A DNA stretch of 64,000 nucleotides from NCBI GenBank assembly GCA_002299555.1, contig DBOL01000107.1:1310-65309 (forward strand), in the 5' to 3' direction. This document shows, piece by piece, positions 6,877-60,586 of this stretch; the first letter of the stretch is position 1, and each line of letters starts with the position of its first letter. Below the pieces are notes generated by a model. It was not told the origin of the DNA. It saw nothing but the letters and a program-made list of their open reading frames with translations, and made no database searches. Position numbers and translations under genes: made by a program. This DNA is from Candidatus Aminicenantes bacterium UBA647. GTDB lineage: Bacteria; Acidobacteriota; Aminicenantia; UBA2199.

Positions 6877-6890
6877 TTCATTCTCCTGAA

Positions 6891-43534: not shown

Positions 43535-43546
43535 TTCCCAGCAACT

Positions 43547-43974: not shown

Positions 43975-44844
43975 ATGAACAAAAACATTGAATCGTCTTT
44001 GATCTTTCAAGATCATACAACTGATAAGACCATAGAGCAGATCCTGAATTTTCTTCATGAACAGAGAGGATTTGATTTCAGCGGAAACAGGGCTTCAATG
44101 GTAAAAAGGAGGATCGCAAAACGTATCTCAGCAGTTCAGGTGATCGATCCAAAAGAATATCTGAAATACATTCAGAAAGATCTGTCAGAGTTGGATGAGC
44201 TTATCAATGTCCTTACTATCAGTGTAAGTAGTTTTTTCCGGGATCCGATCCTGTTCGAATCTCATTCAAGCTGGCTGGATGATATCATATTAAGGAAACA
44301 AACATCTCAGGAAAAGGATATCCGAATCTGGTCAGCAGGATGTTCTACAGGTGAAGAACCATATTCTGTTGCAATTTTACTCAATGAGCAATTGCAGAAT
44401 GAGACAATTTCTTCCGATTTTCATATTTTTGCAACTGATATTGACAGAGAAGCATTGAGGAGTGGTGAAGAAGGTGTTTACTCTCTTGGAGATGTCCAAA
44501 ATGTAAAACTCGGATTATTAGGGAAGTATTTTTCAGTGGAAAAAAACATTTACCGGATAAATGAACAAATTAAAGAGAAAGTTTCCTTCTCTTTTTTTGA
44601 CCTGCTGCATAAGAGGAGTTTTTCCCCTGCAGAAAGTATTTTCGGAGGCTTTGATATAGTATTGTGCCGAAATGTATTGATCTATTTTAATTTTGATTTT
44701 CAGAAAATTATTTTTAAAAAATTATATCGCTCTTTGAACTCAGGAGGGTGCCTGATACTTGGCGAATCTGAAACAGCGGTCGAAAAATATAAAAGTAAAT
44801 TTAATAAGGTTAACAATTGCTGCAAAATTTACAGGAAAAAATAA
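43975..44844 (+). CDS. cheR: CheR-type protein-glutamate O-methyltransferase
   Basis: 289 aa. N-terminal CheR helical domain (FDFSGNRASMVKRRIAKRI). SAM-binding IRIWSAGCSTGEEPYSVAILL, then FDIVLCRNVLIYFN. Confidence 0.85.
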   Translation: MNKNIESSLIFQDHTTDKTIEQILNFLHEQRGFDFSGNRASMVKRRIAKRISAVQVIDPKEYLKYIQKDLSELDELINVLTISVSSFFRDPILFESHSSWLDDIILRKQTSQEKDIRIWSAGCSTGEEPYSVAILLNEQLQNETISSDFHIFATDIDREALRSGEEGVYSLGDVQNVKLGLLGKYFSVEKNIYRINEQIKEKVSFSFFDLLHKRSFSPAESIFGGFDIVLCRNVLIYFNFDFQKIIFKKLYRSLNSGGCLILGESETAVEKYKSKFNKVNNCCKIYRKK

Positions 44845-44845
44845 A

Positions 44846-45892
44846 ATGAAAAATTCTGAAAAAACAAAAGAACAGCTTATAACAGAGATAAAACAATTGG
44901 AATCTAAAGTTATAAAACTGGAAGAATCAAAAAATAAACATAAAATGACAGAAGAAACTGCGGAAGAGAGTGAACAGAAATTCAAGAACATGGTAATGAA
45001 TCTAATGGAGGGTTTTTATAGTGTAACATTGGATGGGAAACTTTTGGAATACAACAATGAATTCGTTAATATATTAGGACTTGATCCGGAAAAGGATTAC
45101 ATCGGATTAAAGGTGCCAGATTTCTGGCAGGATCCGTCAGATAGAAAAGTCTACCTGGATAAATTTTTAAAGAATGGAATTGTAAAGAACTACATAATTA
45201 ATGCCAAAAAATCAAATGGAGATAAGATCTTAACAATGGCGAATGCCCGTCTGATAAAAGATAAGAGAGGGGAACCATTAAGAATTGAAGGGACTTTCCT
45301 GGACGTCACTGAGCGTAAAAAATCAGAGGAAAAAATACGTGCTGCTGAAAAATCTGCAAAAATAAATGAAGAATACTACAGAAACATCATTAACAAAATG
45401 GGTGATCCTGTTTTTGTTAAGGACAACCAAAGCCGGTTTCTTCTGGTTAATGATGCTTTTTGCAAAATGTTAGGCTTAACCAGAAATGACATAATCAACA
45501 AAACACTAGCCGAACATTTATCTCCGGAAGAAATGAAACACTTTTTGAAAGTTGACGAGCAAGTGCTAATTGACGGAAAAGATAATGTAATTGAGGAGCC
45601 ACTTACTACAGGAAATAACAAAACACTAACAATTTCAACAAGAAAGACAAGGTTTATAGATGACAATGACAAAAGATTTCTAGTTGGTGTAATTCGGGAT
45701 GTTACCGAACGCAAGCAAGCGGAAGAGGAGCTTGCAAAACACAGGGATAAGCTGGAAGAGCTTGTGAAAGAAAGGACGGCGAAACTTGAAGAAAAGAATA
45801 AAGAACTCGATACGACATTAAAAGTATTTGTAGGAAGAGAACTCAAGATCAAAGAATTAGAAACTAAGATCAATGCCATGCGAGGTGAATAG
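44846..45892 (+). CDS. Tandem-PAS domain protein ending in a coiled coil (no kinase core)
   Basis: ORF from 44759; ATG 44846 lies 1 nt after the cheR stop. Two PAS blocks each end in the ...DVTERKKSEE / ...DVTERKQAEEE linker. The C-terminal helix is LEEKNKELDTTLKVFVGRELKIKELETKINAM. Confidence 0.75.
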   Translation: MKNSEKTKEQLITEIKQLESKVIKLEESKNKHKMTEETAEESEQKFKNMVMNLMEGFYSVTLDGKLLEYNNEFVNILGLDPEKDYIGLKVPDFWQDPSDRKVYLDKFLKNGIVKNYIINAKKSNGDKILTMANARLIKDKRGEPLRIEGTFLDVTERKKSEEKIRAAEKSAKINEEYYRNIINKMGDPVFVKDNQSRFLLVNDAFCKMLGLTRNDIINKTLAEHLSPEEMKHFLKVDEQVLIDGKDNVIEEPLTTGNNKTLTISTRKTRFIDDNDKRFLVGVIRDVTERKQAEEELAKHRDKLEELVKERTAKLEEKNKELDTTLKVFVGRELKIKELETKINAMRGE

Positions 45893-45940
45893 GGTGAAAT
45901 ACAATTTAAATAAATTCAAATACAAGAAGGAGACAGGATC

Positions 45941-48900
45941 ATGAACTGGTTTCGATTTAAAAGTATCCGGACAAAAATGACATTCTGGTTTTTCGTCATT
46001 GCATCAATACCATTAATAATCATATCGTTCACTTCTTATTCCCAGAGGGTTAATACAATAGAATTACAAACCTTTGAAAAACTTTCGGCAATTCGTGATC
46101 TCAAAGTTGAACAAGTTAAGGCCTGGGTAACTGAGAGGATAGGTGATACACAAACAATGTCAGGAGATTTCGAGATCCGGGGACTCAAATATTCATTAAA
46201 TAAAAGATCAAGATCTCCTGAAGATAAGAAAAAAATAGAGATTGCCACACAACTTTTGAAGAGAAACTTGAAGAATTTCTCTGATTATGAAGAAATATTT
46301 ATTGTAGGAGTTGAATCCGGAACAGTTGAGATATCAACAAACCGGGTTTCTATAGGAAAAAATAAATCCCGGGATCTGTATTATACAACTCCACTTCAAA
46401 CCGGAGAAGTATTCATAAAAGATATATATCGTTCAGTAACCGCTTCCCGCCCTCAAATGACGATCTCTATTCCGGTTTTCTCTCTGGAACATGAATCCGA
46501 TATTATAGGGATCCTTGTAGTCCGGATCGATCTTTCCAATTCACTTTATAAGTTATTACTTAACAGGGTCGGCCTGGGTGAGACCGGCGAGACATTGATC
46601 GTAAACAAAGATATTCTGGCATTGAACCAACTCCGTTGGTATGATAATGCCCCGCTGAATCTTCATATATCGGCAATACCTGCTATAAATGCATCACAGG
46701 GGAAAACAGGCGTTATCAATTCAAATGATTACAGAGATATAATGGTCTTGGCAGCCTACACTTTCATCCCGGAAACAGGCTGGGGATTTGTTTGCAAGCA
46801 GGATCTGTATGAATTAAATGAACCTATACGAGGAATGATCAGGGATTATATAATTACAGCTGTTATTTCATTTCTTATTTTATTTTTAATTTCACTCTTT
46901 GTCAGTGGGACCATATCAAAACCGATTTTAGAAGCAAAAAAAGTAACTTCAGGAATTATAGCTGGAGATCTTTCCCTTAGAAATGTTATCTCCAGTAGTG
47001 ATGAAATTGGCTCATTAGCATCTGCAATAAACGAAATGACTGAAACGATAGAATCACGGATCAATATTCAGGACGAGGTTGGAAAGATTAACACTTTAAT
47101 GGTCGGTCTTTCCTATATGAAGGAATTTGCTTCAGGACTGCTCGAACACTTAATGGGAACCACAAAAGCTAATATAGGGACATTTTATATTTTGAATGAG
47201 GTGACCTCTGAATATGAACATTTTGTTTCCGTTGGAGCAAGCAAAAAATTATTTAATCCCTTTAATGCTGATGAACCGGAAGGTGAATTCGGTTATCCGA
47301 TCACATATAAACAAATTTCGTATCTCCGGGATATTCCCGAAGAATCTATCTTCAAATTTCCTACAATAGCCGGGGACATAAAACCAAAAGAGATAATAAC
47401 CATCCCGATATTGATTGAGGATCAGGTCATTGCTCTAATCTCTCTTGCAAATATCCATAGATTCGATAAAATCAGTTATGATATTCTGAAAGAATCATGG
47501 ATGAATATCAATTCATCTTATTCAAGTATACTTGTAAATCAAAGGACACAGATCCTGGCAGAAAATCTATCAAGGACCAACCAGCAGCTTGAAGCTCAGG
47601 CGGAAGAATTACAGGAGCAGACTGAGGAGATGCAGTCTCAAGCAGAAGAGTTGCATATAACTACTAAAGAATTACATGAACAAAATCTGGAACTTGATAT
47701 GCAGAAAAATGAGGTCGAGGAAGCAAACAGGTTAAAGAGTCAATTTCTCTCAAATATGAGTCATGAATTGAGGACCCCCCTTAATTCGATCATGGCCCTT
47801 TCGCACGTACTGATCCAGCAGGCAGGAGAAAAATTGAGCGAAGAGGAAAATAGTTACCTTGAGATTGTTGAGCGTAACGGCAAGATACTCTTAACTCTTA
47901 TTAATGATATTCTCGATCTGTCAAAGATCGAAGCGGGAAAGATAGATATAAAACCGGCCTTTATTTCTCTTAGAGAGCTCCTGGAAAGTGACATAGAAAA
48001 TTTATCTCCTCTAGCAGAGAAAAAAGATCTGACCATAAATCTTCTTATCCCGGATGACTTGCCGGAAGTTGAGACTGATAGAGACAAATATTCTCAGGTA
48101 TTACTGAATATTATCGGTAATTCAATTAAATTTACAGAAAAAGGTGAAGTGAATATTAGAGCAAGCCATGATCCTTTATACGTTTATATCGATATAGAAG
48201 ATACTGGAATAGGTATTTCAGAAGAGAATCTTCAAATTATATTTGAAGAATTCAGGCAGGTTGACGGATCTTCAAAAAGGAATTATGAAGGGACAGGATT
48301 GGGTCTTGCAATTTCCTCAAAATTGATGAAATTACTTGGCGGAACAATTTCTGTAAAAAGTGAGGCTGGAAAAGGTTCCATATTCACTTTAGCATTACCG
48401 ATAAAGTGGCAGGGTGAATCAATGGCCGGGAAAGGAGACTCGTTATTGACCTATGATGATCCTGATAAAACAGGAAATATCTCCGGATCCGTAAAAGATT
48501 TCAGAGAAATATCCGGTCAACGCATTCTGATTGTTGAAGACAATGAGATTGCGATCCTTCAAGTAAAGAAAATGCTGGAAAGTGAAGGATATCTGGTCGA
48601 TGTTGCAGTCGGAGGAGCACAGGCACTAGAGTATATGGAACACTCAATTCCGGACGGAATAATTATGGATCTGATGATGCCGGGGATAGATGGATTTGAA
48701 GTGCTGGAAAAGATCAGAAGCAAAAAGAGCACAAAAAATATACCTGTTTTGATACTCACGGCCAAAGATCTCAACAAGAAAGATCTGGCAAAACTAAGTT
48801 CAAATAATATTCATCACCTGATCAATAAAGGCGATGTGGATAGAGATGAGTTCCTATCGAAAATAGCGATAATGCTGAATATAAATGATAAAAGAGCAGA

Positions 48901-49342
48901 TAAAACTGAAAAAAAAGTAAATAAAGTTAAAAATGTTGTCACAAAAGGAAGAAGCAATATGATCATTTCTAAAACTCCGGGACTGCCAACAATCCTGATC
49001 ATTGAAGACAATCCTGACAATATGGTAACTATCAATGCAATTTTGAAAAACAATTACAATACTCTGGAAGCTTATGATGGGGAAGAGGGATTAGTTCTTG
49101 TCAATTCTCAAAACCCTGACCTTATATTACTGGATATATCATTGCCGGGAATGGATGGTATAGAAGTTTTGAGTTCATTAAAGAGTTCTGTGGAAACTTC
49201 AGGGATCCCGGTTATCGCAATAACAGCACGTGTTATGCAGGAAGATCTGGAATTATTATCCGAGTCAGGGTTTAATGATTTTATTTCAAAACCGGTAGAT
49301 CCGGATGAAGTTTTAAAAAAGCTGAAAATATGGATAAAATAA
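45941..49342 (+). CDS. Large hybrid sensor histidine kinase (Cache-like periplasmic domain, HAMP, GAF-like, Q/E-rich coiled coil, HisKA, HATPase_c, 2x REC)
   Basis: 1133 aa. Two TM segments flank a ~290-aa extracytoplasmic region. HAMP: SKPILEAKKVTSGIIAGDL...EIGSLASAINEMT. Repeated AEELQEQTEEMQSQAEEL coiled coil. H-box SHELRTPLNSI. G-boxes DTGIGIS and GTGLGLA. Receivers ILIVEDNEIA...DLMMPGIDG and ILIIEDNPDN...DISLPGMDG. Confidence 0.9.
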   Translation: MNWFRFKSIRTKMTFWFFVIASIPLIIISFTSYSQRVNTIELQTFEKLSAIRDLKVEQVKAWVTERIGDTQTMSGDFEIRGLKYSLNKRSRSPEDKKKIEIATQLLKRNLKNFSDYEEIFIVGVESGTVEISTNRVSIGKNKSRDLYYTTPLQTGEVFIKDIYRSVTASRPQMTISIPVFSLEHESDIIGILVVRIDLSNSLYKLLLNRVGLGETGETLIVNKDILALNQLRWYDNAPLNLHISAIPAINASQGKTGVINSNDYRDIMVLAAYTFIPETGWGFVCKQDLYELNEPIRGMIRDYIITAVISFLILFLISLFVSGTISKPILEAKKVTSGIIAGDLSLRNVISSSDEIGSLASAINEMTETIESRINIQDEVGKINTLMVGLSYMKEFASGLLEHLMGTTKANIGTFYILNEVTSEYEHFVSVGASKKLFNPFNADEPEGEFGYPITYKQISYLRDIPEESIFKFPTIAGDIKPKEIITIPILIEDQVIALISLANIHRFDKISYDILKESWMNINSSYSSILVNQRTQILAENLSRTNQQLEAQAEELQEQTEEMQSQAEELHITTKELHEQNLELDMQKNEVEEANRLKSQFLSNMSHELRTPLNSIMALSHVLIQQAGEKLSEEENSYLEIVERNGKILLTLINDILDLSKIEAGKIDIKPAFISLRELLESDIENLSPLAEKKDLTINLLIPDDLPEVETDRDKYSQVLLNIIGNSIKFTEKGEVNIRASHDPLYVYIDIEDTGIGISEENLQIIFEEFRQVDGSSKRNYEGTGLGLAISSKLMKLLGGTISVKSEAGKGSIFTLALPIKWQGESMAGKGDSLLTYDDPDKTGNISGSVKDFREISGQRILIVEDNEIAILQVKKMLESEGYLVDVAVGGAQALEYMEHSIPDGIIMDLMMPGIDGFEVLEKIRSKKSTKNIPVLILTAKDLNKKDLAKLSSNNIHHLINKGDVDRDEFLSKIAIMLNINDKRADKTEKKVNKVKNVVTKGRSNMIISKTPGLPTILIIEDNPDNMVTINAILKNNYNTLEAYDGEEGLVLVNSQNPDLILLDISLPGMDGIEVLSSLKSSVETSGIPVIAITARVMQEDLELLSESGFNDFISKPVDPDEVLKKLKIWIK

Positions 49343-49383
49343 AAAAGAAAATATGAATATCGATGAGCTTACAAGGAGGCTAG

Positions 49384-49920
49384 ATGAGTAAAATCTTAAT
49401 AATTGATGACATTAAGGATAACCTTATTTCTATTAAAGCATTGCTATTGAACTTGAGACCCGAAACAGAGGTACTTACAGCTCAATCGGGGACTGCAGGG
49501 ATCGAGATAGCAAAAAAAGAGAGCCCCGATACTATCCTTCTCGATATTATAATGCCGAAGATGGATGGCTATGAAGTTTGTAAGTTACTCAAAGAGGATG
49601 AAGTTACTGCAAATATTCCGGTAATAATGCTAACTGCCGTTAACACCGATATACAGAGCAAGATAAAAGGGTTGGAAGTAGGTGCAGATGCCTTTTTCTC
49701 GAAACCCATGGACCCTGAAGAACTTTCCGCCCAGATCAGTGTTATGCTGAGAATTAAGAAAGCTGAGGACAAACTCAGACACGATAAAAAAGAACTCGAG
49801 GTGAAGAATAAAGATCTGGAACGTTTCTTTAACGCAACAATAGAACGGGAATTCAGGATCAAAGAGTTAAATGATCAAATAGATGTATTAAATGCTAAGA
49901 TCAAAGAATTGGAGAAATAG
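49384..49920 (+). CDS. Response regulator: receiver domain + C-terminal coiled coil, no recognised output domain
   Basis: 178 aa. ILIIDDIKDN...LLDIIMPKMDG...MLTA...KP is the REC fold. The tail is LEVKNKDLERFFNATIEREFRIKELNDQIDVLNAKIKELEK. Confidence 0.85.
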   Translation: MSKILIIDDIKDNLISIKALLLNLRPETEVLTAQSGTAGIEIAKKESPDTILLDIIMPKMDGYEVCKLLKEDEVTANIPVIMLTAVNTDIQSKIKGLEVGADAFFSKPMDPEELSAQISVMLRIKKAEDKLRHDKKELEVKNKDLERFFNATIEREFRIKELNDQIDVLNAKIKELEK

Positions 49921-50206: not shown

Positions 50207-51622
50207 ATGGACAGAAGGAAGTTCTTGAAGGCGTCAGGTGTAGCAGGTGCTGTCGTTGGAGGTGCCGGTTTAGGGTTTTTCGGATACGAAGCAGGGAGAG
50301 ACCCGGACAGCTATACAGGATGGAAAAACCGTGAAGGTGGATTCCAAACTTTCAACAGGATCAAATGGGCCGTTGATAAACCGACATATGAAAAATTGGG
50401 GCCTTCCCGAAGAGTTGATGCAAGGACCGAAGTCGTATTTTCAAGAATGGGCCCGTTATTCAGGAACTGGAAAGAAGAGGAAGGGACAAAAAGCCTCCCG
50501 GAATATCTGAAGAAATATTATGATGCAAACCCTGAAATTCTTGAACTTGACCTTAAAGTGAAAAATGAATTATTCCCGAAATTACGAAAGGACAGGGACA
50601 AGTACGGTGATAAGTTCATTCTTGCTGAAGCGTGGTCGGATGCAATGGGCGCTGTATGGCCTGAACATTCAAAAGAACCTCCTGAGATAGCTGACTTCCC
50701 CGAGAGAAAAGACAGGAAACAATTGAAAATGAAAAGTCCGGAAAAAACGTCAAAATTGATAAAAAAGATAGCACACCAGTTTGGTTCCACTCTTGTCGGA
50801 ATAACAAAATTGAATCCCGACTGGGTCTATTCTCATCCGATGAGAAGGAGAGGGCTGGATACAGATAAACCTTTTGAAGTTCCTAAGCACTGGCAGTATG
50901 CGATCGTTGTCGGTGTTCCGATGTCCTGGGATCCGATGTTTGCAAACCCGAACTACGGGACATCCCATGATGCATATGCCATATCAAGGATAATTTCGGT
51001 CCGCCTCTCCACTTTCATTAAACAATTAGGATATGCCGCCAGGCCCCACACACCGGGAACAGAATATGATCTTATGGTCCCGCCCATATTAGTTGATGCA
51101 GGGATCGGGGAACAGGGCAGACACTCAATTGTAGTAACTCCTGAACTTGGCAGTAATTTCAGACCTGCAATTATTACAACGAACATCCCTTTAAAGCCTG
51201 ACAAGCCTATTGATTTCGGAGTACAGGATTTTTGTAAAAGCTGCAAAGTATGTGCTGAACAATGCCCGAGCGGATCTATTACAAAAGGTGACAAAGTGGA
51301 GATCAGAGGATATAAAAGATATCCTTTCAGCCCTGCAAGCTGTCACAATTTCTGGTACTCAAAACTGGGCAATATGGGTTGCAGAATATGTATTTCGGTC
51401 TGCCCGTATACCCGGAAAGCAAACTGGGTTCACAAAGCTGCATTTAATGTTTCGGCCTATGACCCAACCGGTCTGGCCGATAAAGCTCTGACAGCAATGC
51501 AGAAGATATTTTATCCCGGACCAGATCCACAGGACTATTTTATACCTTCCCTGGGCGGGAAGAATGCATCTTACAGAAAGCCGCCATGGTGGCTCAAAAC
51601 TGAAGACTTTATAGATCTTTGA
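50207..51622 (+). CDS. rdhA: Reductive dehalogenase-like protein (RdhA homologue), Tat-exported, corrinoid/2x[4Fe-4S] type
   Basis: 471 aa. Tat motif MDRRKFLKASGVAGAVVGGAG. Central blocks VGITKLNPDWVYSH, AIVVGVPMSWD and VDAGIGEQGRHSIVVTPELGSNFRPAIITTNIPLKPDKPIDFGVQDFC. Fe-S motifs CKSCKVCAEQCP and C-x12-CRICISVCP, the characteristic RdhA pair. Confidence 0.8.
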   Translation: MDRRKFLKASGVAGAVVGGAGLGFFGYEAGRDPDSYTGWKNREGGFQTFNRIKWAVDKPTYEKLGPSRRVDARTEVVFSRMGPLFRNWKEEEGTKSLPEYLKKYYDANPEILELDLKVKNELFPKLRKDRDKYGDKFILAEAWSDAMGAVWPEHSKEPPEIADFPERKDRKQLKMKSPEKTSKLIKKIAHQFGSTLVGITKLNPDWVYSHPMRRRGLDTDKPFEVPKHWQYAIVVGVPMSWDPMFANPNYGTSHDAYAISRIISVRLSTFIKQLGYAARPHTPGTEYDLMVPPILVDAGIGEQGRHSIVVTPELGSNFRPAIITTNIPLKPDKPIDFGVQDFCKSCKVCAEQCPSGSITKGDKVEIRGYKRYPFSPASCHNFWYSKLGNMGCRICISVCPYTRKANWVHKAAFNVSAYDPTGLADKALTAMQKIFYPGPDPQDYFIPSLGGKNASYRKPPWWLKTEDFIDL

Positions 51623-51633
51623 GGAGGTATTCC

Positions 51634-51921
51634 ATGTCATTTTTTACAAGCGGTTTATTCTGGTTTATTCAGGGTATTTTAACAACGGTTATAATAATGG
51701 CTTTCAGAGCCTGGATGGAAGACCGGAATGTAATAATGTTCTGGTGGAAGTGGTTCCTGTTCGGAATATGGATCATCCTGGCTGGATTCACTATCGCATT
51801 CATATTTACCAGTCTCGGTGAAGGAGAATCCGTTGCAGCTATAAAAGGGGGAATTATATTCTCTCTTATTACAACCATCTCAGGTGTCGGTATATGGAGA
51901 TTGATAAACAAAAAGAATTAA
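51634..51921 (+). CDS. rdhB: RdhB-like small membrane anchor (3 predicted TM helices)
   Basis: ORF from TTG 51619; ATG 51634 follows GAGGAGG. About 95 aa with three hydrophobic helices. The TM2-TM3 linker/tail SLGEGESVAAIKGGIIFSLITTISGVGIWRLINK resembles PceB ...FSEREYQAIGMGFIFFGG...ITYRLANH as I recall it. It lies immediately 3' of rdhA. Confidence 0.65.
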   Translation: MSFFTSGLFWFIQGILTTVIIMAFRAWMEDRNVIMFWWKWFLFGIWIILAGFTIAFIFTSLGEGESVAAIKGGIIFSLITTISGVGIWRLINKKN

Positions 51922-51979
51922 TATTATATATTAATATATTGAAGGAAGAATTCAACTTAGAACAGAAGAGGAGAGAGAA

Positions 51980-53824
51980 ATGATATCAAAAGAAGCAGCA
52001 GGAATTGCAGCGCAATGCAGACATTATGCCATGTGCAAGATCGATTTTTTGCAAACCGGGTTATGCCCTCCGGGGGAAAACAATCATTATGTAAGTTATT
52101 ATCCACAGGGAAGGATGGATCTGTACGATGCTCTGGCAAAGGGACTTATCCCTGTAACCGAAAGACTTGTAGATATTGCAGATACCTGCACTTTGTGTGG
52201 AATATGCGATAAACAATGCCACTTCGTAACCGAACTCAGGCCAATGAAAGTAATGAGAGCACTTAAGGAATACGTTGACTCCCATCTGGCAGAGAATAAA
52301 AAAGTAGTTAAAATAGAGGAAGACGATATTCTCCGGCAATTTAAAAAAATTGTAGGCGAAAAAAATGCCACGAACGACCCCGCAATTCTTGTTACATATT
52401 CAAATGACCCGGCTCCCATGGCAAAACCACAAATGCCTCAATATATAGTACTCCCGTCAAATAGAGATGAAGTAAAAGATATTGTATCTATATGCAATAA
52501 ATTTAAGATCCCTTTTGCAGTGAGAGGGAACGGAAGCAGTGTATTCGGGATCGTAATGAGTGAAGGTGTTGTTCTTGATATGGGGAGAGATAAAGAGATC
52601 ACAATTGATCGGGATAACTGGAAAGTTAATACAGGTGCCGGAGTATCGGCATTTGATCTTCAACAGGAAGCTGAGAAGAACGGCTTCAGAGTGAACTCAG
52701 CAGAACCATCTGCTATAGTGTGCTCCAATATAATGTGTTCAGGTATATTATCCACATTTTCGAACACTTACGGGACCGGAGCAGACAACTATGTGGATGC
52801 AGAATTTGTCAGTAATAAGGGGGAAGCATTTGACCTGAATGACAAGATCGGCCCGAATCTCTTCGGCTTTGACAAACAGGGTTCCCCTTCTCCGGGGATC
52901 TGTACCGGAGCATCCATAAAACTACACAAAGTTACCGAAGATGAGGAGGGTATCGGGATCCCTTTTTCTTCATTCGATGAAGCTGCGATCTTCTGTAGAG
53001 ATCTCAGCCACAGAAGGATCGGTATCTCTATTGCAATGCTTGGTGGAGAATATATTTCCACATTTATTTCTCCTACATCCGATCTTGCAGAGAAAGTAAA
53101 AACACTCTTTATAGAAACGTTGGGAATCAAATTTCTGGTGGTTGTGATCGGAGATAAATATGCTGTAGAAACAATAAAAAAAATGACCCCCGTTACGATA
53201 GATGACAAATTATTCCGATTAATGATGCTTAGCCTTCCCCAAATGGTAGAGGGTGAGTGGATAGAAATGCTGGGAGATATAGAGACAGATGTGAATCTAT
53301 TTGAACTATTTTGTAAAGAAGAGATGTATCCATTATTGGAGACAGTATTAGATCCCTCCCCGGAATCAATCGGAGCAATAGTTCCGGAAGACCTGAGAGA
53401 TTTTTATACTCAACTCTATTCACGACCGGAGATGACAAATTTGGCATGGTTAAGTACTTTCCGTATCCTGAGTTCCCGCATGGGAAGATTCAAACATGTT
53501 GTTGCTTTTATCGGATATGCTCCTCTGGACAAGTTGGAAGTTATAAAACAAATGATCGGGGAATTCAAAAGAATTGGAGACAAATACGAGCTTAAACATG
53601 ATTATGGTTTCATAACACCTGTTGATCTGGGAAAACGCGCTATCCTGGAATATGATTTCTATATCGATCATACAGATCCTGCAGAGATACAGCAGATGCT
53701 CAGAGCAATGGGTGAAGCAGGCCCGATGATCGGAGAATTAAGCCAGAAGCACAAAGGGATCCAATGGATCAATACTATCCTTTTTCAGGGATTCTCCCGT
53801 AAAGAAAATTTTTTATACCGATAA
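51980..53824 (+). CDS. Fusion oxidoreductase: N-terminal Cys-rich (Fe-S-type) module + FAD_binding_4 (PCMH-type) domain + uncharacterised C-terminal half
   Basis: 614 aa. Cys clusters CRHYAMCKIDFLQTGLCP and CTLCGICDKQCHF. FAD-binding block PQYIVLPSNRDEVKDIVSICNKFKIPFAVRGNGSSVFG. I did not recognise the last ~300 aa as the usual FAD-oxidase C domain. Confidence 0.65.
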   Translation: MISKEAAGIAAQCRHYAMCKIDFLQTGLCPPGENNHYVSYYPQGRMDLYDALAKGLIPVTERLVDIADTCTLCGICDKQCHFVTELRPMKVMRALKEYVDSHLAENKKVVKIEEDDILRQFKKIVGEKNATNDPAILVTYSNDPAPMAKPQMPQYIVLPSNRDEVKDIVSICNKFKIPFAVRGNGSSVFGIVMSEGVVLDMGRDKEITIDRDNWKVNTGAGVSAFDLQQEAEKNGFRVNSAEPSAIVCSNIMCSGILSTFSNTYGTGADNYVDAEFVSNKGEAFDLNDKIGPNLFGFDKQGSPSPGICTGASIKLHKVTEDEEGIGIPFSSFDEAAIFCRDLSHRRIGISIAMLGGEYISTFISPTSDLAEKVKTLFIETLGIKFLVVVIGDKYAVETIKKMTPVTIDDKLFRLMMLSLPQMVEGEWIEMLGDIETDVNLFELFCKEEMYPLLETVLDPSPESIGAIVPEDLRDFYTQLYSRPEMTNLAWLSTFRILSSRMGRFKHVVAFIGYAPLDKLEVIKQMIGEFKRIGDKYELKHDYGFITPVDLGKRAILEYDFYIDHTDPAEIQQMLRAMGEAGPMIGELSQKHKGIQWINTILFQGFSRKENFLYR

Positions 53825-53843
53825 CATGTAGCAGAAACGTGTA

Positions 53844-55064
53844 ATGAAAATATCGGCTCAGGAACTAAAAAGGAAAAGGGATAACAGAGAAAGCGTTTTC
53901 CTTATAACCGGAGGCACTGGCTTCATCGGGAGTCATACTGCCGTTGCCCTTTTAGAACGTGGATACCGGGTAATATTATTATGCCGGCCAGGCCGCAAGA
54001 TCTCAGCCCGGGAAAGAGTGGACAAGCTACTTGACTGGTTTCAAATTAAAGGGAGAAAAGGACTTTCCCGGCTTGAGGTGGTGGAAGGCTTCATCGACAA
54101 ACCAAACCTTGGATTGTCTGATAAGTCATATGAAAATCTTTCCGGGAAGTTCAATGAGATCATCCACTGCGCTGCAGTCACCTCCTTTTCAGAAAAGAAA
54201 AGAGAGGAGTTGGAAACAGCCAATATAAGAAACCTGAGCAACCTGTTAAAACTGGCTGATTCAAAAAATAGTAAATGCTACTATTTTCACCATATCAGCA
54301 CTGTTTATACCGCGGGAAAACATACCGGGACATTTGAAGAGACCTTGATAAAAACTGAAAATTTCAATAATGTTTATGAAGAGACAAAATACCATGGTGA
54401 GCATTATGTGTCTGAAGCATTTGAAAAAGAAGGAATAATGGTCAATATCTACCGATCTTCCATTGTCTACGGCAATTCTGAGACAGGAAGAAGCTCACGG
54501 TTCAATGCACTCTATTATCCGGTAAAGATGGCCCTTTTTCTAAAAGATACCTACAAAAATGATATAACCCGGAATGGTGGCAGGAGAGCCATCCAAATGG
54601 GAGTTCGATTGGAAGAAGACGGGACTGTTTTCCTGCCTATAAGAATGGAGAATAAGAGAGGTGGTTCCATGAACCTGATTCCCATCGATTATTATACTAC
54701 CGCTTTTATTGCTCTGCTGGAAGAAAGTATGGAAAGTAGTATTTTTCATATCGTGAGTGATTCCCCGAAAACTCTGGATGATATCATTCACTACTTTCGG
54801 GAATTGTTCAGGATCAGGGGATTCCGGACTGCTTCCAAAGAGAATTTCAACGAGATCCCAGCCAACGCATTGGAGATATTGTTCAACAAATATCTTGAAA
54901 CGTACGGGCCATATATCCGTGATACCCGTCAGTTTGACTTTCGTAAAGCTGAAAAGATACTGAAGGAAAAAAACATTAAATGCCCTGAGTTTGACCAGGA
55001 GGTTTTTTCCAGATGTATGAATTATGCAATTTCAGTAAACTGGAAAAACCCCTGGGATAACTGA
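53844..55064 (+). CDS. Thioester-reductase-type SDR (NAD_binding_4 / fatty acyl-CoA reductase-like)
   Basis: 406 aa. VFLITGGTGFIGSH...VILLCRPG..ARERV...VEGFIDKPNLGLS...IIHCAAVTSF...NIRNLSNLL...HISTVYTAG...YEETKYHGE. This is the extended-SDR terminal reductase pattern with YxxxK. Confidence 0.7.
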   Translation: MKISAQELKRKRDNRESVFLITGGTGFIGSHTAVALLERGYRVILLCRPGRKISARERVDKLLDWFQIKGRKGLSRLEVVEGFIDKPNLGLSDKSYENLSGKFNEIIHCAAVTSFSEKKREELETANIRNLSNLLKLADSKNSKCYYFHHISTVYTAGKHTGTFEETLIKTENFNNVYEETKYHGEHYVSEAFEKEGIMVNIYRSSIVYGNSETGRSSRFNALYYPVKMALFLKDTYKNDITRNGGRRAIQMGVRLEEDGTVFLPIRMENKRGGSMNLIPIDYYTTAFIALLEESMESSIFHIVSDSPKTLDDIIHYFRELFRIRGFRTASKENFNEIPANALEILFNKYLETYGPYIRDTRQFDFRKAEKILKEKNIKCPEFDQEVFSRCMNYAISVNWKNPWDN

Positions 55065-55105
55065 TCAGACTTTTCTTCCGGCCTGATCAGAGGTGAATTT
55101 TTCAA
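55061..55105 (+). terminator. Putative intrinsic terminator between convergent operons
   Basis: CTGATCAG (55061-55068) and CTGATCAG (55083-55090) can form an 8-bp stem with a 14-nt loop. GAATTTTTC lies a few nt downstream. The first arm overlaps the TGA stop. Confidence 0.35.
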
Positions 55106-55110: not shown

Positions 55111-58100
55111 TTAATCAGGTTTTACAGTTATATCACCCTCCTTCCTGTCACTGAACCACTTGTAAAGAACCGGGATCAGTATTAAAGTAAGGAATGTGGA
55201 TGAGATAAGTCCGTTCACAACAACTACTGCCAGCGGACGCTGCACCTCTGCACCGATCCCCTGAGAAAGGAGAAGAGGGATAAGTCCGAGAACAGTGGTT
55301 AATGCTGTCATTAATACCGGCCTCAGCCTTACTATACCTCCATGAATAATTGCTGCATCCATATCCATCCCTTCACTGATCAGTTTGTTTATATAAGATA
55401 CAAGAACTACTCCATTCTGAACTGCAACACCAAACAATGCTATAAATCCTATAGATGCAGGAACTGAGAGATATTCTCCGAAAATGAATAGTCCGAATAT
55501 CCCTCCGATCAGCCCCAGCGGTATATTCAGAATTATCAGGAGAGAATTTTTGATCGATCCGAACGTCAGGTAGAGAAGAAAGAGAATCAATATAATTGAG
55601 ATCGGGACAATAATTTTTAACTTTGCCATCGCCCTTTCCTGATTTTCGAACTGTCCTCCGATCTCTACATAGTATCCCGGAGGAAATTCAATACTATCCT
55701 TAATGATACTTTTTATATCTGAGACCACTCCTCCGAGATCCCGCCCCCTGACATTAGCCTGAATGACCCACCTTCTCATATTTTTTTCTCTGTTGATCTG
55801 AATAGGGCCCGTCACCTTTTTCACTTCTGCCAATTGCGAAAGTTTCAGAAGTTCCCCACTGCTACCTTTGATAATAAGATCCCTGATAGAATCCGGATCC
55901 TTTCTGAATTGTTCTTTATACCTTAAATTTATATCAAACCTTCTGGTATTAAGGTATACCTGGTCGATCGACTTTCCTCCGATCGCTATCTCCACTATCT
56001 CAAGAAGTTCTGAAACATTCACTCCATATCTGGAACAAGCGGATCTGTCAACTATCACCTGAAGTTGAGGTTGTCCGAAGCTTTGTTCAAGAGAGAGATC
56101 AACAAGACCATCAACTTTATCTATTTTATTTTTTATTTCTGTCGCCTTCTCTTCAAGGACCTTCAAATCCTCACCGAATACTTTTATCGCCAATTCTGTT
56201 TTTGTCCCTGACAAAAGCTCATCAAAAGCATTCTGGATAGGTTGTGAAAAATTAAGCTGGATCCCGGGGAAATTTGAAAGCCCTGCCTCCATAGATTCGA
56301 TCAAAGAAACCTTCTCCTTGAACCTTACCCATTCAGACCTCGGAAGGAGTTCAATATGGACCTCTGCATAGTTAACAGGATGGGGATGAGATCCGGTCTC
56401 CGGCCTCCCGATCCTGGATATTATCTGTTTTACTTCTTTATATTTTATAAGTTGCTTCTCAACCTTCATGATCGTTTCCGTAGCCTTTTCCAGGGAAATA
56501 GAAGGTGCCATGGTTACTCCGATCAGGATAGAGCCCTCTTCCAATGTGGGAATGAACTCCGTTCCCAGATGAGGTATGAGTAAAATACTGATCAGGAAAC
56601 TGATGGAAATGAATGTGATAACAGTTTTTTTGAATTTGAGAGCAATTTTTAAAGTCGATTCATAGAGTGATCTTATAGCCTTAAAAATAAAGAATTCCCT
56701 GCTATTTCCGGGCTTAAGCAGATATACGGAAAGTGCCGGCGCCATTATTAATGCAGCAGCGATCGATCCGATCAATGCAAATGAAATTGTGAAAGCAAGT
56801 GGAGAGAACATTTTACCCTCAACTCCCTGCAGGGTAAATATAGGTAAAAAAACAATGATCACTATAGCTATAGAGAATACTATCGGCCTGCCAACACCTC
56901 TCGCAGCCTCCCCTATAAGTTTTATCCTCTCTTTATCCCTGCTGGACGGATCTGATAATATCCTGAAAATATTTTCAACCATAACTATTGCCCCATCCCC
57001 CAGCATTCCGATCCCGATCGCAATACCGCCAAGAGACATGAGATTTGCTGACAAGCCTGTAAATCCCATAAAGATCACAGAAATAAATGCACAAAAAGGG
57101 AGGGCCAGTAAAACTATAAAAGCACTTCTCATATTTCCCAGAAATACCATTAGCACAAGGAGAACAAGTATAACTCCAAAGAGGAGAGCATTTTTTACAG
57201 TTCCGATCGCTTTTTTGATCAGTTCTGCCTGCTCATAATAAGGTATAAGTGTCACTCCTTTCGGAAGAAGTTTTTGAACTTCAGGAATTTTCTCATATAA
57301 CCTCTCAATTACTTCAGAAGTATTCTCTCCGAACAATTGATAGACTATACCTGATACAACTTCCTCTTCCCCATTTCTGGTAACAACTCCTCTCCTGATC
57401 TCATTCCCATATTTTACTTTTGCAACATCAGATATCATTACAGGAGTTCCATCGATAGTTTTTAAGTGAATATTCCTTATGTCTTCCAGAGTTTGTACAA
57501 GCCCTATACCACGGACAAGATATTCCTCGGAATTTATAACCAGAAATTGTGCACCCACATTCCGGTTGTTACCTTTTACAGCGGAGATCATATCCTCCAG
57601 TTCCAGTTTGTATTTTAATAATGCATAAGGATCTATTTCTATCTGATATTGCAATACATGTCCACCTATAGATAGTATCTCTGTTACTCCGGGTACCGCT
57701 TGAAGATGAAATTTTATCAGCCAGTCATTGATCTCCCTCAAATATGTATTCTTATCTTTCCCTCCGGTATCAACATTATCATCAATTGTAAGATAATAGA
57801 TAAATATCTGTCCCAGTCCTGTTGATATCGGCCCCAAAGAAGGAGCTTCATCCATTTCCGGGAGAGAAGCAGAAACGCTCTGAAGCCGTTCACTGACTAT
57901 CTGCCTTGCAAAATATATATCAACACTATCCTTAAAATATACATAGATCACAGCCATCCCAAAAGCCGATGTTGACTTGACGAGAGTTACATCAGGCAGT
58001 CCATTCATTGCTGATTCAATAGGGAAAGTTATCAGTCTTTCTATTTCCTCTGGTGCCATTCCGTGGGCTTCGGCAAATACCGGTACCATGATCGGGGATA

Positions 58101-58224
58101 TGTCCGGAAATGCATCAACCGGCAATTCCTTATACTGAAAAACTCCTGCAACAAAAACACCTATCACCAAAATGATAACGATCAGCCTATGTTTTAATGA
58201 GATATCAATTAGCCTGTTAATCAT
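55111..58224 (-). CDS. CusA/CzcA-family heavy-metal efflux RND permease
   Basis: 1037 aa with 12-TM RND architecture. N-terminus MINRLIDISLKHRLIVIIL. The TM4 block SLGGIAIGIGMLGDGAIVMVEN resembles the HME-RND signature, closer to CusA than to CzcA. Confidence 0.9.
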   Translation of the reverse strand: MINRLIDISLKHRLIVIILVIGVFVAGVFQYKELPVDAFPDISPIMVPVFAEAHGMAPEEIERLITFPIESAMNGLPDVTLVKSTSAFGMAVIYVYFKDSVDIYFARQIVSERLQSVSASLPEMDEAPSLGPISTGLGQIFIYYLTIDDNVDTGGKDKNTYLREINDWLIKFHLQAVPGVTEILSIGGHVLQYQIEIDPYALLKYKLELEDMISAVKGNNRNVGAQFLVINSEEYLVRGIGLVQTLEDIRNIHLKTIDGTPVMISDVAKVKYGNEIRRGVVTRNGEEEVVSGIVYQLFGENTSEVIERLYEKIPEVQKLLPKGVTLIPYYEQAELIKKAIGTVKNALLFGVILVLLVLMVFLGNMRSAFIVLLALPFCAFISVIFMGFTGLSANLMSLGGIAIGIGMLGDGAIVMVENIFRILSDPSSRDKERIKLIGEAARGVGRPIVFSIAIVIIVFLPIFTLQGVEGKMFSPLAFTISFALIGSIAAALIMAPALSVYLLKPGNSREFFIFKAIRSLYESTLKIALKFKKTVITFISISFLISILLIPHLGTEFIPTLEEGSILIGVTMAPSISLEKATETIMKVEKQLIKYKEVKQIISRIGRPETGSHPHPVNYAEVHIELLPRSEWVRFKEKVSLIESMEAGLSNFPGIQLNFSQPIQNAFDELLSGTKTELAIKVFGEDLKVLEEKATEIKNKIDKVDGLVDLSLEQSFGQPQLQVIVDRSACSRYGVNVSELLEIVEIAIGGKSIDQVYLNTRRFDINLRYKEQFRKDPDSIRDLIIKGSSGELLKLSQLAEVKKVTGPIQINREKNMRRWVIQANVRGRDLGGVVSDIKSIIKDSIEFPPGYYVEIGGQFENQERAMAKLKIIVPISIILILFLLYLTFGSIKNSLLIILNIPLGLIGGIFGLFIFGEYLSVPASIGFIALFGVAVQNGVVLVSYINKLISEGMDMDAAIIHGGIVRLRPVLMTALTTVLGLIPLLLSQGIGAEVQRPLAVVVVNGLISSTFLTLILIPVLYKWFSDRKEGDITVKPD

Positions 58225-58236
58225 ATTTACCTCTGC

Positions 58237-59247
58237 TTAGTGTCCATGCCCGGCATGGCTATCCATTGTGCTGGTTACGATCCTGGCCTTTAGTTCGAAA
58301 GATCCTTTTCTGACATATTCACTCCCATACTCAAGACCACTTAACAACTCGGTAAAGACCCCGCTTTTCCGCCCTATAACAACATGTACAATATGAAACT
58401 CATTTCCCTCTTCGGGTACGAATAGTACCGGTTCATCATTCAGGAACTGGATCGCCTCTGAATAAACGACCGGAACTTTTGAAATTGATAATATATTGAT
58501 CTCACCTTTAATAAATTCGCCGGGGAGCCATATATTCTCACCATTCTTCAGCAGAGCTTTAACCGTCATATTTCTTGTCTCTCTGTCCACAACGGGAATA
58601 ATGGATAATACTTTGCATATTGCCGATCTTTCCCCATCAATCGAGAACAGTGTTACATCCATCCCTTTTTTAAAATTTGAAATACTATCGGGGAAAACAT
58701 TAAGATGGACCCATAATGTAGACAGGTCAGCTATCTCAAGGATGATACGGCCTTCACCTGCAAATTCCCCTTCTGCAATATCTCTTTTAGTAACGATCCC
58801 GGAAATTTCAGAAATTAAGTTATAATTTGTTAAACTTTCATTACTCTGAATCTTCGCAAGAATTTCGCCTTTGCTAACGGTATCCCCTTCGCTTTTATAT
58901 ATTTTTTTTACAACACCGGGGAACCTTGGAATCACTCTGCGGTGCTTCTCTTCATTAAAACATACTTCTCCGGGAAAAATTTCTTTTTTATCGATCTGCC
59001 CCATAGCAACTTGTTCAATAGTTATTCCGACAAGTTTTATAGCCTCTTTTGTGAGGATAACATGATCTTCTTCACCTTCATGACCCTGATCATCAGGGAT
59101 ACTCCCTTCTTCTTTATGTGTAGTGACACTACCCTGATCTTTGGTCCCGCTCTCCTTATTCGTTGAGCAATTTATTGTTATTAATACAAGAACTCCCACC
59201 AGAATCATTATGCCTGCAACATTTTTTATATTATTTCTCATTTTCAC
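58237..59247 (-). CDS. Efflux RND periplasmic adaptor (membrane fusion protein) with His-rich termini
   Basis: 336 aa. Lipoyl/beta-barrel MFP blocks (GDTVSKGEILAKIQS, ISGIVTKRDIAEGE). His/acidic N-terminal stretch HKEEGSIPDDQGHEGEEDH and C-terminal MDSHAGHGH. It overlaps the upstream OMF gene by 17 nt. Confidence 0.85.
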   Translation of the reverse strand: MKMRNNIKNVAGIMILVGVLVLITINCSTNKESGTKDQGSVTTHKEEGSIPDDQGHEGEEDHVILTKEAIKLVGITIEQVAMGQIDKKEIFPGEVCFNEEKHRRVIPRFPGVVKKIYKSEGDTVSKGEILAKIQSNESLTNYNLISEISGIVTKRDIAEGEFAGEGRIILEIADLSTLWVHLNVFPDSISNFKKGMDVTLFSIDGERSAICKVLSIIPVVDRETRNMTVKALLKNGENIWLPGEFIKGEINILSISKVPVVYSEAIQFLNDEPVLFVPEEGNEFHIVHVVIGRKSGVFTELLSGLEYGSEYVRKGSFELKARIVTSTMDSHAGHGH

Positions 59248-60529
59248 TCCTGTTAACCATAATATTTAGTATTCCCCCGTTGAGCCTTTCAATTTCAGCC
59301 ATTTCTATCCTCCGGTCACGAATACTCCTGATATATTCTTCCTTGATCTCATACACAGAATCGTAAACATCAATTACTTCAAGATAGTCAGATCTGCCCA
59401 TAGAATAAGCTTCCGATATTATTTTTAATGTGTTCTCTGACTCGGGAATTATCTTATTCTTAAACACTCTTAAATTCCCCAATTCTGTCCTTAAAGTTCT
59501 GAATTTTTCTTTTAGTTCAGATTTCAGTCTCAGTTCCTCTGCTTTAAATTCAGAATCAGCTTTGCTTACAAGATATCCTGCTGTTGAGACTCCCCCTTTA
59601 TTAGTGTTGAACACCGGAACCGGTATGGATATCCCTGCTGTGAAGGCTGTTAATCCTGTTTCAAAATGTCTCTTTACTCCACCTGATAAAGTTATATCCG
59701 GAACTCTCACTGCTTTCTCAAGGCTGAGTTGAGCTTCCTTCTGTCTGACCACACTCTTTAAGACGATAAGATCGGGATTGCTATTTGATATTTCGCTTAT
59801 CTCTTCACTAATATGGAACTTTTCCCAACCTGTGTCCATTGAACTGACTGATCTGTAGGGGAATTTATTTTCACCCCAGAGAGTAGCCAGATGTATACCA
59901 TTTGAATAGAATTCAGATAATATGGATCTAAGCTCCGCCCTACTCCTCAACAGGTTTATTTTTATACGGGATAATTCTACAGGTAAAGTTTTCCCTGCAC
60001 TTACCCTTTTCAGTATCTGCAGCTTAAAGCTCTCTATCTGATCTACACGTCTCTTTTTTAAAGATATCTTTTCCTGAAGAAAATAAAGTTCATAAAACTT
60101 AATTGTTGCATTAAGCAAAAGGTCAGCTGCCTTTCTATTGAAATTCAGTTCTGATATTGATTTTTCTCCTTTGGCTATCGCTTCAGCCAAAGACCTTTTG
60201 CCGGCGGTGGGGATTTTCTGACTCAAAGTTGCCGCAAATTCAGACCTGCCGAATCCGCCAAGTTCTCCGCTCCCTGCAAAATTATCAAGTCCGAATTCAA
60301 ATTCAGGATTAGCTAATCTTGACTGCTGATAAATTTGACCATCCTTTGATCTCACCTCATATCTAAATGCAGCAAGATCTGAATTTCCTTTGAGCACTTT
60401 TACTAGTATTGAATTTAAGGTCAGATCATTATTATCTTCCTTAAAATCAGAATGTAGAAAAAATGATATTAAAAATATTACTAACGCGATCCGGGTAATA
60501 CTAAAATTTTTATTTGACTTGCCAGACAT
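59231..60529 (-). CDS. TolC-family outer-membrane efflux protein (CzcC/CusC-like)
   Basis: 432 aa with a signal-like N-terminus and two OEP repeats with long helical segments. It is the first large gene of the OMF-MFP-RND order. Confidence 0.8.
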   Translation of the reverse strand: MSGKSNKNFSITRIALVIFLISFFLHSDFKEDNNDLTLNSILVKVLKGNSDLAAFRYEVRSKDGQIYQQSRLANPEFEFGLDNFAGSGELGGFGRSEFAATLSQKIPTAGKRSLAEAIAKGEKSISELNFNRKAADLLLNATIKFYELYFLQEKISLKKRRVDQIESFKLQILKRVSAGKTLPVELSRIKINLLRSRAELRSILSEFYSNGIHLATLWGENKFPYRSVSSMDTGWEKFHISEEISEISNSNPDLIVLKSVVRQKEAQLSLEKAVRVPDITLSGGVKRHFETGLTAFTAGISIPVPVFNTNKGGVSTAGYLVSKADSEFKAEELRLKSELKEKFRTLRTELGNLRVFKNKIIPESENTLKIISEAYSMGRSDYLEVIDVYDSVYEIKEEYIRSIRDRRIEMAEIERLNGGILNIMVNRSENEK

Positions 60530-60586
60530 ATTCTCCTCCTGATTTAGTTTTTAGTGGTCTCTATCCTGAACAAACAGGGAGAGATA

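Follow-up and report, generated by a model that had tools for sequence, protein, structure and literature searches.

A respiratory-type reductive dehalogenase pair and a FAD/Fe-S-SDR pair, probably neighbours by insertion, in an Aminicenantes genome

The locus

The stretch of DNA considered here, called the window throughout, comprises 64,000 nucleotides (nt) of contig DBOL01000107.1 (positions 1,310 to 65,309), from the assembly of Candidatus Aminicenantes bacterium UBA647 (GCA_002299555.1). It carries four co-directional open reading frames (ORFs): rdhA and rdhB, which encode a reductive dehalogenase homolog and its putative membrane anchor, followed by gene 3 and gene 4, which encode a flavoprotein with flavin adenine dinucleotide (FAD) and iron-sulfur (Fe-S) domains and a short-chain dehydrogenase/reductase (SDR). 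The original prediction, made from the DNA alone, had proposed that the four genes form one functional unit in which a periplasmic dehalogenase is coupled to cytoplasmic chemistry involving FAD and reduced nicotinamide adenine dinucleotide (phosphate), NAD(P)H. The comparative analysis described below points to a different history, in which two independent two-gene modules probably became neighbours by insertion. Re-reading of the DNA returned the coordinates and motifs of the four genes as they had first been noted:

50207-51622, plus strand: rdhA, 471 amino acids (aa), predicted reductive dehalogenase homolog with corrinoid and two [4Fe-4S] clusters, exported by the twin-arginine translocation (Tat) system (TIGR02486, PDB search, Foldseek)
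51634-51921, plus strand: rdhB, 95 aa, predicted three-helix membrane anchor (PF27193 VcrB, EXE motif)
51980-53824, plus strand: gene 3, 614 aa, predicted cytoplasmic FAD/Fe-S flavoprotein; a backbone gene that does not belong to the rdh cassette (PF01565)
53844-55064, plus strand: gene 4, 406 aa, extended SDR of the NAD_binding_4 family, similar to fatty-acyl-CoA and thioester reductases (PF07993)

Gaps of 11, 58 and 19 nt separate the successive genes, each of which is preceded by a ribosome-binding site (RBS). Public sources hold no names for the four proteins.

A respiratory-type reductive dehalogenase pair

The product of rdhA scores 179.6 bits against the reductive dehalogenase model TIGR02486 (NCBIfam cutoff 160.35), in a match that spans residues 220-435 only, and 56.7 bits against the model of the related enzyme QueG (TIGR00276), whose cutoff is 200. 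The twin-arginine leader that had been read at its N-terminus, with the motif RRKFLK at R3R4, passes the TIGR01409 model (20.5 bits, cutoff 16.7); with the Pfam TAT_signal model the score is slightly under the cutoff (20.8 bits, cutoff 22.7). The paired Fe-S motifs are likewise present, as C343xxC346xxC349xxxC353-P354 and C379-x12-C392xxC395xxxC399-P400. All eight of these cysteines are invariant in 28 RdhA homologs, and so are Y257 and R319, the two residues that came out of the comparison with the active sites of PceA and NpRdhA. In the alignments Y257 corresponds to Y426 of NpRdhA, and R319 to R305 of PceA and K488 of NpRdhA; HMMER places Y257 two positions off Y246 of PceA, in an indel region.

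Sequence and structure searches agreed in their ranking. Searching PDB with the RdhA sequence retrieved PceA (1e-36), NpRdhA (2e-34) and QueG (1e-11, over residues 293-404 only). The AlphaFold model of RdhA (predicted TM-score, pTM, 0.78; mean pLDDT 72.6) matched PceA, NpRdhA and the membrane reductive dehalogenase complex 8q4h in Foldseek with E values of 1e-16 to 1e-18 and TM-scores (TM) of 0.5-0.59, and QueG with an E value of about 1e-6 and a TM of about 0.3. The fold is thus RdhA-like with QueG more distant. Of the outcomes that would have undermined the original prediction, neither likeness to QueG nor loss of the active-site residues was observed. QueG shares with the window protein the superfamily of enzymes with corrinoid and two [4Fe-4S] clusters; unlike the window RdhA, it is cytoplasmic and has no RdhB.

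Comparison with the solved enzymes shows where the likeness lies. The best solved match is PceA of Sulfurospirillum multivorans (PDB 4uqu and others), with which the Fe-S motifs and a PIDFG block are conserved, whereas the N-terminal 215 residues, which are clade-specific, barely align. The catabolic, cytoplasmic NpRdhA (PDB 4ras, 6zy1) aligns over residues 175-406 of the window protein but differs from this exported and anchored RdhA in lacking both a Tat signal and an RdhB and in carrying a fused reductase module. The closest parallel in architecture is PceA-PceB of Desulfitobacterium hafniense TCE1 (PDB 8q4h), which is a menaquinol:organohalide oxidoreductase (PMC10624902). As in that system, the window RdhA is predicted to be exported by Tat, has two Fe-S motifs and is directly followed by a three-helix RdhB with the EXE motif. 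The resemblance is remote in sequence (TM 0.59 to 8q4h_A at about 19% identity, and a marginal RdhB match with E = 0.12), and pceC and pceT are lacking from the window.

The RdhA protein belongs to a clade whose 120 best matches are 63-92% identical over their full length and whose sources include KSB1, Latescibacterota and Aminicenantes. This clade is unusually conserved, the proteins attributed to these three groups being 63-69% identical to one another over their full length. Its members may share one natural substrate, may have spread horizontally, or both. The Pfam N-terminal Dehalogenase domain, PF13486, has no match in the window RdhA at E <= 0.01 and is also lacking from its homologs; PF13486 is not a universal criterion for RdhA. 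Such features could also be expected if the clade were a corrinoid/Fe-S reductase of some widespread non-halogenated natural substrate, still acting as a membrane-anchored terminal reductase of respiration. The degree of conservation is atypical for RdhAs that diversify in substrate, PF13486 is not detected, TIGR02486 covers only part of the protein, and the clade has no characterised member and is 19-24% identical to solved RdhAs. Nevertheless, the curated threshold for reductive dehalogenases is passed, the catalytic Tyr/Arg pair for halide-elimination chemistry is invariant, the protein is accompanied by its canonical RdhB and in many loci by RdhC, and there is a clear distance to QueG, which is the known relative without dehalogenase function. 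We therefore consider a non-dehalogenase function unlikely.

The second gene starts at the ATG at 51634, behind a GGAGG, and its 95-aa product ends at 51921, so that the small three-helix membrane protein described 11 nt past the rdhA stop codon, with its RBS, is readily read in the DNA. Besides its three hydrophobic helices, the protein has W38-K-W40 and G62-E63-G-E65, which includes the EXE motif; both reach 90% conservation or more across 67 homologs. The glutamates of EXE are a hallmark of RdhB at the menaquinol pocket (PMC10624902). A protein identical to this RdhB carries a precomputed match to PF27193 VcrB. The further claim that its tail resembles PceB could be verified only weakly. 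The single sequence has no match in PDB or in the local Pfam; a profile built from 16 RdhBs of the clade reached PceB (8q4h_C) as its sole match in PDB, with a weak E value of 0.12, over the full length and with the EXE motif aligned.

A classification of marine RdhAs distinguishes "prototypical respiratory" enzymes, defined by a Tat signal and an rdhB partner, from transmembrane and cytosolic types (PMC12219181). Since both hallmarks are found in the window, rdhA-rdhB is, judged on its sequence, a bona fide pair of the "prototypical respiratory" type, Tat-dependent and membrane-anchored. The exported, anchored architecture predicted for RdhAB and the presence of its catalytic residues are results of the present analysis; its cofactors and its dependence on quinol would follow by analogy. 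RdhA would be loaded with corrinoid and two [4Fe-4S] clusters, exported in the folded state through Tat and docked, on the outer side of the membrane, to the three-helix RdhB. If RdhB works as in PceA2B2, it would bind menaquinol at a pocket containing the EXE glutamates E63 and E65, and electrons would pass from menaquinol through the two Fe-S clusters to cobalt, with Y257 and R319 protonating the dehalogenated product. For menaquinol as the electron donor, the MenC gene in the window is circumstantial evidence. The substrate is probably a natural organohalide of anoxic sediments. In this respect the locus documents that sediment phyla without cultured members (Aminicenantes, KSB1 and Latescibacterota) carry a well-conserved clade of respiratory-type RdhAB(C) that is as yet uncharacterised.

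Genes 3 and 4, a flavoprotein-SDR pair

Gene 3 begins with a helical domain containing seven invariant cysteines, arranged as C13-x5-C19-x9-C29-P and C70xxC73xxC76xxxC80. This pattern may resemble that of SdhB- and GlpC-type domains, which combine a 4Fe-4S with a 3Fe-4S cluster. The remainder of the protein consists of FAD_binding_4 (PF01565, 80.5 bits, cutoff 26.4) and a cap domain. Matches at the level of sequence are limited to the FAD domain, and the C-terminal half has no family at that level. In Foldseek, the AF2 model (pTM 0.86) retrieved first eugenol/vanillyl-alcohol oxidase (VAO) and PCMH, that is, 4-alkylphenol oxidases and hydroxylases, then D-lactate dehydrogenase (D-LDH) and then alkyl-dihydroxyacetone-phosphate synthase (alkyl-DHAP synthase, AGPS), with TM values of 0.5-0.6. 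The protein fails the equivalog threshold of GlcD/D-lactate dehydrogenase (TIGR00387, 40.6 bits against 567.9) and reaches no other curated equivalog. By family score and fold, gene 3 is a VAO/PCMH-type FAD-linked oxidoreductase. It differs from these flavoenzymes in its low identity (14-17%), in its unique N-terminal seven-cysteine Fe-S domain and in its fixed NAD_binding_4 SDR partner, and its family has no characterised member.

Gene 4 belongs to NAD_binding_4 (PF07993, 147.4 bits, cutoff 20.1) and has the TGxxGxxG and YxxxK motifs. Its fold and motifs are those of terminal thioester-reductase (R) domains and fatty acyl-CoA reductases such as MxaA, carboxylic acid reductase (CAR) and PRK07201/AcrA1-like proteins, and its matches in PDB are MxaA and the R domains of CAR. 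In contrast to R domains, it is a stand-alone protein with no carrier-protein or adenylation partner nearby, and it is under the TIGR01746 thioester-reductase cutoff (134 bits against 213.35). Neither gene 3 nor gene 4 has a signal peptide or a transmembrane segment, in sequence or in model.

The genomic context of both pairs was surveyed in 80 gene-3 loci, the best of 309 at species level, and in 80 metagenomic loci of the RdhA clade, out of at least 445. Relatives of gene 3 occur in at least 309 species-level genomes, Marinilabiliaceae among them, and the best 80 loci come from Aminicenantes, Desulfobacterota, Nitrospirota, NC10, Bacteroidales, Spirochaetes and Acidobacteria. In 77 of the 80, gene 3 is followed by a co-directional gene-4 SDR, essentially always directly adjacent. 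SDRs found at a spacing of d = 2950 from gene-3 homologs were set aside as second paralogs, the true partner being adjacent. The only other gene that recurs beside the pair is a quinone methyltransferase, found directly before or after it in 26 of the 80 loci and in at least three phyla (MenG/UbiE, TIGR01934, in 24 and UbiG in 2); the remaining neighbours are heterogeneous, and no men or mqn gene except the methyltransferase recurs. The gene for o-succinylbenzoate synthase, MenC, lies on the backbone of the Aminicenantes genomes, the window included.

From this neighbourhood the FAD-SDR pair appears to be an uncharacterised cytoplasmic module of the core genome that is genomically tied to quinone metabolism. 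A putative FAD/Fe-S dehydrogenase is joined in it by a thioester-reductase-like SDR that would use NAD(P), and the pair is ancient and widely conserved. That it is an undescribed two-enzyme module of anaerobes in the biosynthesis or modification of (menaquinone-type) quinones is a tentative proposal that we consider doubtful; in one possible chemistry, a quinol intermediate would be oxidised or hydroxylated without O2, in the manner of PCMH, and this step would be combined with an NAD(P)H-dependent reduction. A role in ether lipids, with gene 3 AGPS-like and gene 4 like a fatty acyl-CoA reductase, was rated low because AGPS matches gene 3 structurally worse than VAO/PCMH and D-LDH types do, because the Fe-S domain is unexpected for AGPS chemistry and because the conserved third gene is a quinone methyltransferase. 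No description of a FAD/Fe-S-SDR(-MenG) module was found in the literature. This widespread unnamed module is the more novel lead to come from the locus, and it has cultured carriers in Marinilabilia rubra, Geofilum rubicundum and Desulfobulbus alkaliphilus.

The two genes of the pair do not always diverge together. In comparisons of the window with the relatives L012, L013 and L004, gene 3 is 87-89% identical and the gene-4 SDR 62-64% identical, while L014 shows 78% for gene 3 and 74% for the SDR. From this mismatch it seems possible that the SDR inside the pair has recombined or that its allele has been replaced.

Linkage of the two pairs is confined to one lineage

The proposal of a four-gene unit implies that the downstream genes accompany rdhAB in other genomes. 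Starting from gene 3, both rdhA and rdhB were found within 10 kb in only one of the 80 loci, L012, whose RdhA is a 91% relative; L013, with a gene 3 that is 87% identical, has no rdhA. Starting from RdhA, the next gene encodes RdhB in 71 of 80 loci. Of the 50 loci that extend far enough to show it, 26 also have RdhC, but the FAD gene occurs in only two of the 41 with enough flank, both from a single lineage with 91-92% RdhA identity. RdhC is a membrane flavoprotein of the FMN_bind/Fer4_5 type (PMC5928378), and rdhA-rdhB-rdhC, the PceABC type, is the commonest layout in the clade. Six contexts inspected singly gave rdhA-rdhB-rdhC (FMN_bind/Fer4_5) four times, rdhA-rdhB alone once and the four-gene layout once, in the 91% relative. 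The window departs from these clusters in that no rdhC is found within its 64 kb and an unrelated backbone gene, gene 3, follows rdhB.

Because rdhAB and the FAD-SDR pair co-locate in one lineage only (1/80 and 2/41, all positives at 91% RdhA identity or more), the four-gene unit is not conserved, and the co-occurrence analysis leaves the downstream genes without conserved linkage to rdhAB, an outcome that the original prediction had itself listed as refuting it. Had cytoplasmic redox enzymes really formed part of a dehalogenase operon, a new pathway of organohalide processing would have been indicated; the evidence points otherwise, and the locus is a clear example that shared orientation and short gaps do not prove operon-level function.

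A probable insertion slot downstream of tRNA-Ser

The position of the FAD-SDR pair could be followed in the rdh-free relatives L013, L015 and L016 by tblastn synteny and annotation. Their common backbone reads gap-pgk-tpi-secG-tRNA-Leu-tRNA-Ser, a variable segment, the FAD-SDR pair, a second variable segment, an adh_short SDR, MenC (minus strand) and an ORF (minus strand), with the tRNA-Leu/tRNA-Ser pair at the same position in all three. The corresponding features of the window are:

43451-43534, plus strand: tRNA-Leu(gag) (ARAGORN, Rfam)
43546-43635, plus strand: tRNA-Ser(gct), which closes the conserved backbone gap-pgk-tpi-secG-tRNAs (ARAGORN, Rfam)
43794-43811, plus strand: second copy of the 18-nt tRNA-Ser 3' end, AATCCCACCCTCTCCGTT, identical to the first at 43619-43636; an att-like scar that borders the variable slot on the left
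43975-44844, plus strand: cheR, which opens a lineage-specific sensor block (43975-49920)
44759/44846-45892, plus strand: PAS protein of the sensor block
45941-49342, plus strand: hybrid kinase of the sensor block, dCache-HisKA-HATPase-2xREC, 1133 aa
49384-49920, plus strand: response regulator of the sensor block, REC and coiled coil, without output domain
55111-60997, minus strand: efflux operon of the CusA/CzcA-type resistance-nodulation-division (RND) family, the second lineage-specific block (annotation), with permease 55111-58224, membrane fusion protein (MFP) 58237-59247, outer membrane protein (OMP) 59231-60529 and small ORF 60587-60997
61263-62168, plus strand: classical SDR (adh_short, PRK06197-like), backbone
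62215-63336, minus strand: MenC, o-succinylbenzoate synthase (TIGR01928, 337.9 bits, cutoff 200.65), backbone

Three states of occupancy are visible in the slot downstream of tRNA-Ser. It is empty in L013, where gene 3 begins about 450 nt after the tRNA; it holds rdhAB only, with no sensor genes, in L093; and in the window it holds the cheR-PAS-kinase-regulator block followed by rdhAB. The sensor block is thus absent from both L013 and the rdhAB-bearing L093, and it occupies the same slot, upstream of rdhAB, in the sub-lineage of the window. On the other side of the FAD-SDR pair, the RND efflux operon splits the gene-4 SDR from the adh_short-MenC backbone; this operon is found in L012 and is absent from L013, L015 and L016.

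The 18-nt repeat of the tRNA-Ser 3' end is present in two copies in the window, where 0.07 would be expected by chance. Copies also occur in the relatives, three in L013 (9537/9684/9874), two in L015 and two in L093 (6193/6367), the last within a 71-nt duplication. Since tRNA-Ser 3' ends are duplicated in this way, the repeats are att-like scars that mark a hotspot of recombination and insertion linked to the tRNA. The homology between L093 and the window ends at the second repeat, resumes 11 nt before the rdhA start and from there continues without a break across rdhB and the following spacer as far as gene 3 and into it. The junction between rdhAB and the FAD gene is therefore ancestral to the sub-lineages, and the region upstream of rdhA has been remodelled. 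In L093, the approximately 550 nt between the tRNA scar and rdhA (about 6440-6990) are unrelated to the window and contain an apparent small Cys-rich ORF on the minus strand.

Two modules or one operon

Taken together, these observations favour two independent two-gene modules, a respiratory RdhAB and an unrelated FAD/Fe-S-SDR pair, that are neighbours by insertion; we put the probability of this reading at about 0.8. The modules are taken to be independent because their compartments differ, RdhA having a Tat leader and the products of genes 3 and 4 being cytoplasmic by sequence, and because the linkage holds in one lineage only. Nothing suggests that rdhAB and genes 3 and 4 share one substrate. 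Since rdhAB is missing from all three of the more distant relatives (L013, L015 and L016), comparative synteny makes a gain of rdhAB by insertion beside the FAD-SDR pair the most parsimonious course of events. In one Aminicenantes-like lineage, the pair rdhAB would have entered the variable slot that lies between tRNA-Ser and the FAD-SDR pair.

Several points weigh against this reading. No anomaly in GC or GC3 was seen per gene in either inserted block, no integrase was found and no third tRNA-derived repeat at the right-hand junction, and loss of rdhAB in L013, L015 and L016 is a formal alternative to insertion. The quality of the RdhA model is moderate (mean pLDDT 72.6), and the identification of its clade as reductive dehalogenases extends over about 19-24% identity to the characterised or solved enzymes. 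The survey took in 80 loci on each side, from 309 for gene 3 and from at least 445 for RdhA, and many contigs were short. Finally, the junction between rdhAB and the FAD gene has been kept in five same-lineage contigs (the window, L004, L012/L093 and L092) across about 10% protein divergence, and a junction as stable as this could have gained a lineage-specific co-regulation.

The last point bears on whether the four genes might be a functional operon peculiar to this lineage, whose enzymes would act one after another on a single substrate such as a halogenated acyl or aromatic compound. Such an operon would account for the shared direction, the short gaps with an RBS before each gene, the lack of a convincing terminator between rdhB and gene 3 and the persistence of the junction, and the absence of rdhC, normally the third gene in the clade, leaves the third position 'vacant' in the window. 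Against it, the linkage is absent outside the one lineage in both directions, the FAD-SDR pair is found at this very position in relatives that have no rdh genes, where it would be transcribed from a start of its own, the enzymes reside in different compartments, and the conserved partners of the FAD-SDR pair elsewhere are quinone methyltransferases, not dehalogenases. An operon of this kind is accordingly very unlikely.

A looser connection through menaquinone can also be envisaged, in which the FAD/Fe-S-SDR pair makes or modifies the quinone pool used by RdhAB and selection kept the two adjacent after the insertion. If the FAD-SDR pair acts on quinones, its position beside a menaquinol-dependent RdhAB could be non-accidental. 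The flanking MenG/UbiE or UbiG genes, the presence of MenC on the same backbone and the fact that RdhAB complexes of such architecture are menaquinol:organohalide oxidoreductases (PMC10624902) all fit this idea. It is countered by the failure of any men or mqn gene but the methyltransferase to recur beside the pair and by the many genomes in which the two are apart, as the FAD-SDR pair occurs in hundreds of genomes with no rdhAB nearby and most members of the RdhA clade have no FAD-SDR pair nearby. Moreover, the slot is a general hotspot, which took up the sensor genes too, and an efflux operon was inserted nearby. We see only a slender chance that selection of this kind holds the neighbours together, and insertion of one independent module beside the other is preferred.

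Regulators and transcription

The cheR, PAS, hybrid kinase and response regulator genes upstream of rdhA are annotated as the original prediction had them; their proposed association with rdh genes is not a feature of the RdhA clade. Among clade loci, 35 have 2.5 kb or more of sequence upstream of rdhA, and in these no kinase or receiver homolog was found within 3 kb upstream; L093 has rdhAB without sensors. The response regulator at 49384-49920 has no DNA-binding domain. With its dCache domain and two receivers, the hybrid kinase together with this output-less regulator resembles a phosphorelay, not a simple transcription switch.

A terminator-like hairpin had been described after the fourth gene:

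55061-55090, plus strand: hairpin with arms CTGATCAG and CTGATCAG 14 nt apart, located where gene 4 and czcA converge, free energy -11.8 kcal/mol

The structure consists of an 8-bp palindromic stem around a loop of 14 nt, and no run of T residues adjoins it. Its folding energy does not stand out from that of shuffled sequences (z = -0.21), and a terminator scan did not flag it, so that it is not a convincing intrinsic terminator. Consensus scans for promoters and terminators returned counts equal to the shuffled expectation and are uninformative on co-transcription. When the regions upstream of gene 3 were aligned between rdh-bearing and rdh-free relatives, only the RBS and the start were conserved and no shared promoter was identified. 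Rfam detected no riboswitch, such as a cobalamin riboswitch, and no RNA beyond the two tRNAs. Judged from the layout of the DNA, co-transcription of the four genes by read-through is possible in the lineage of the window.

Other observations in the window

The corrinoid adenosyltransferase of the PduO type that had been noted elsewhere in the window is found where it was placed, with a score above the cutoff:

15039-15551: PduO-type corrinoid adenosyltransferase (TIGR00636, 172.5 bits, cutoff 108)

Two further observations concern regions away from the dehalogenase locus. At 18790-20007, on the minus strand, lies a gene for a protein of the phospholipase D family with a sub-threshold resemblance to DrmC of DISARM (90 bits, cutoff 133). 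Positions 27341-30698 hold adjacent GatE-like (GatB_N, 660 aa) and GatD-like (GatD_N and asparaginase domains) genes, a pair that corresponds to the archaeal-type Glu-tRNA(Gln) amidotransferase and is here found in an apparently bacterial (Aminicenantes-like) genome.

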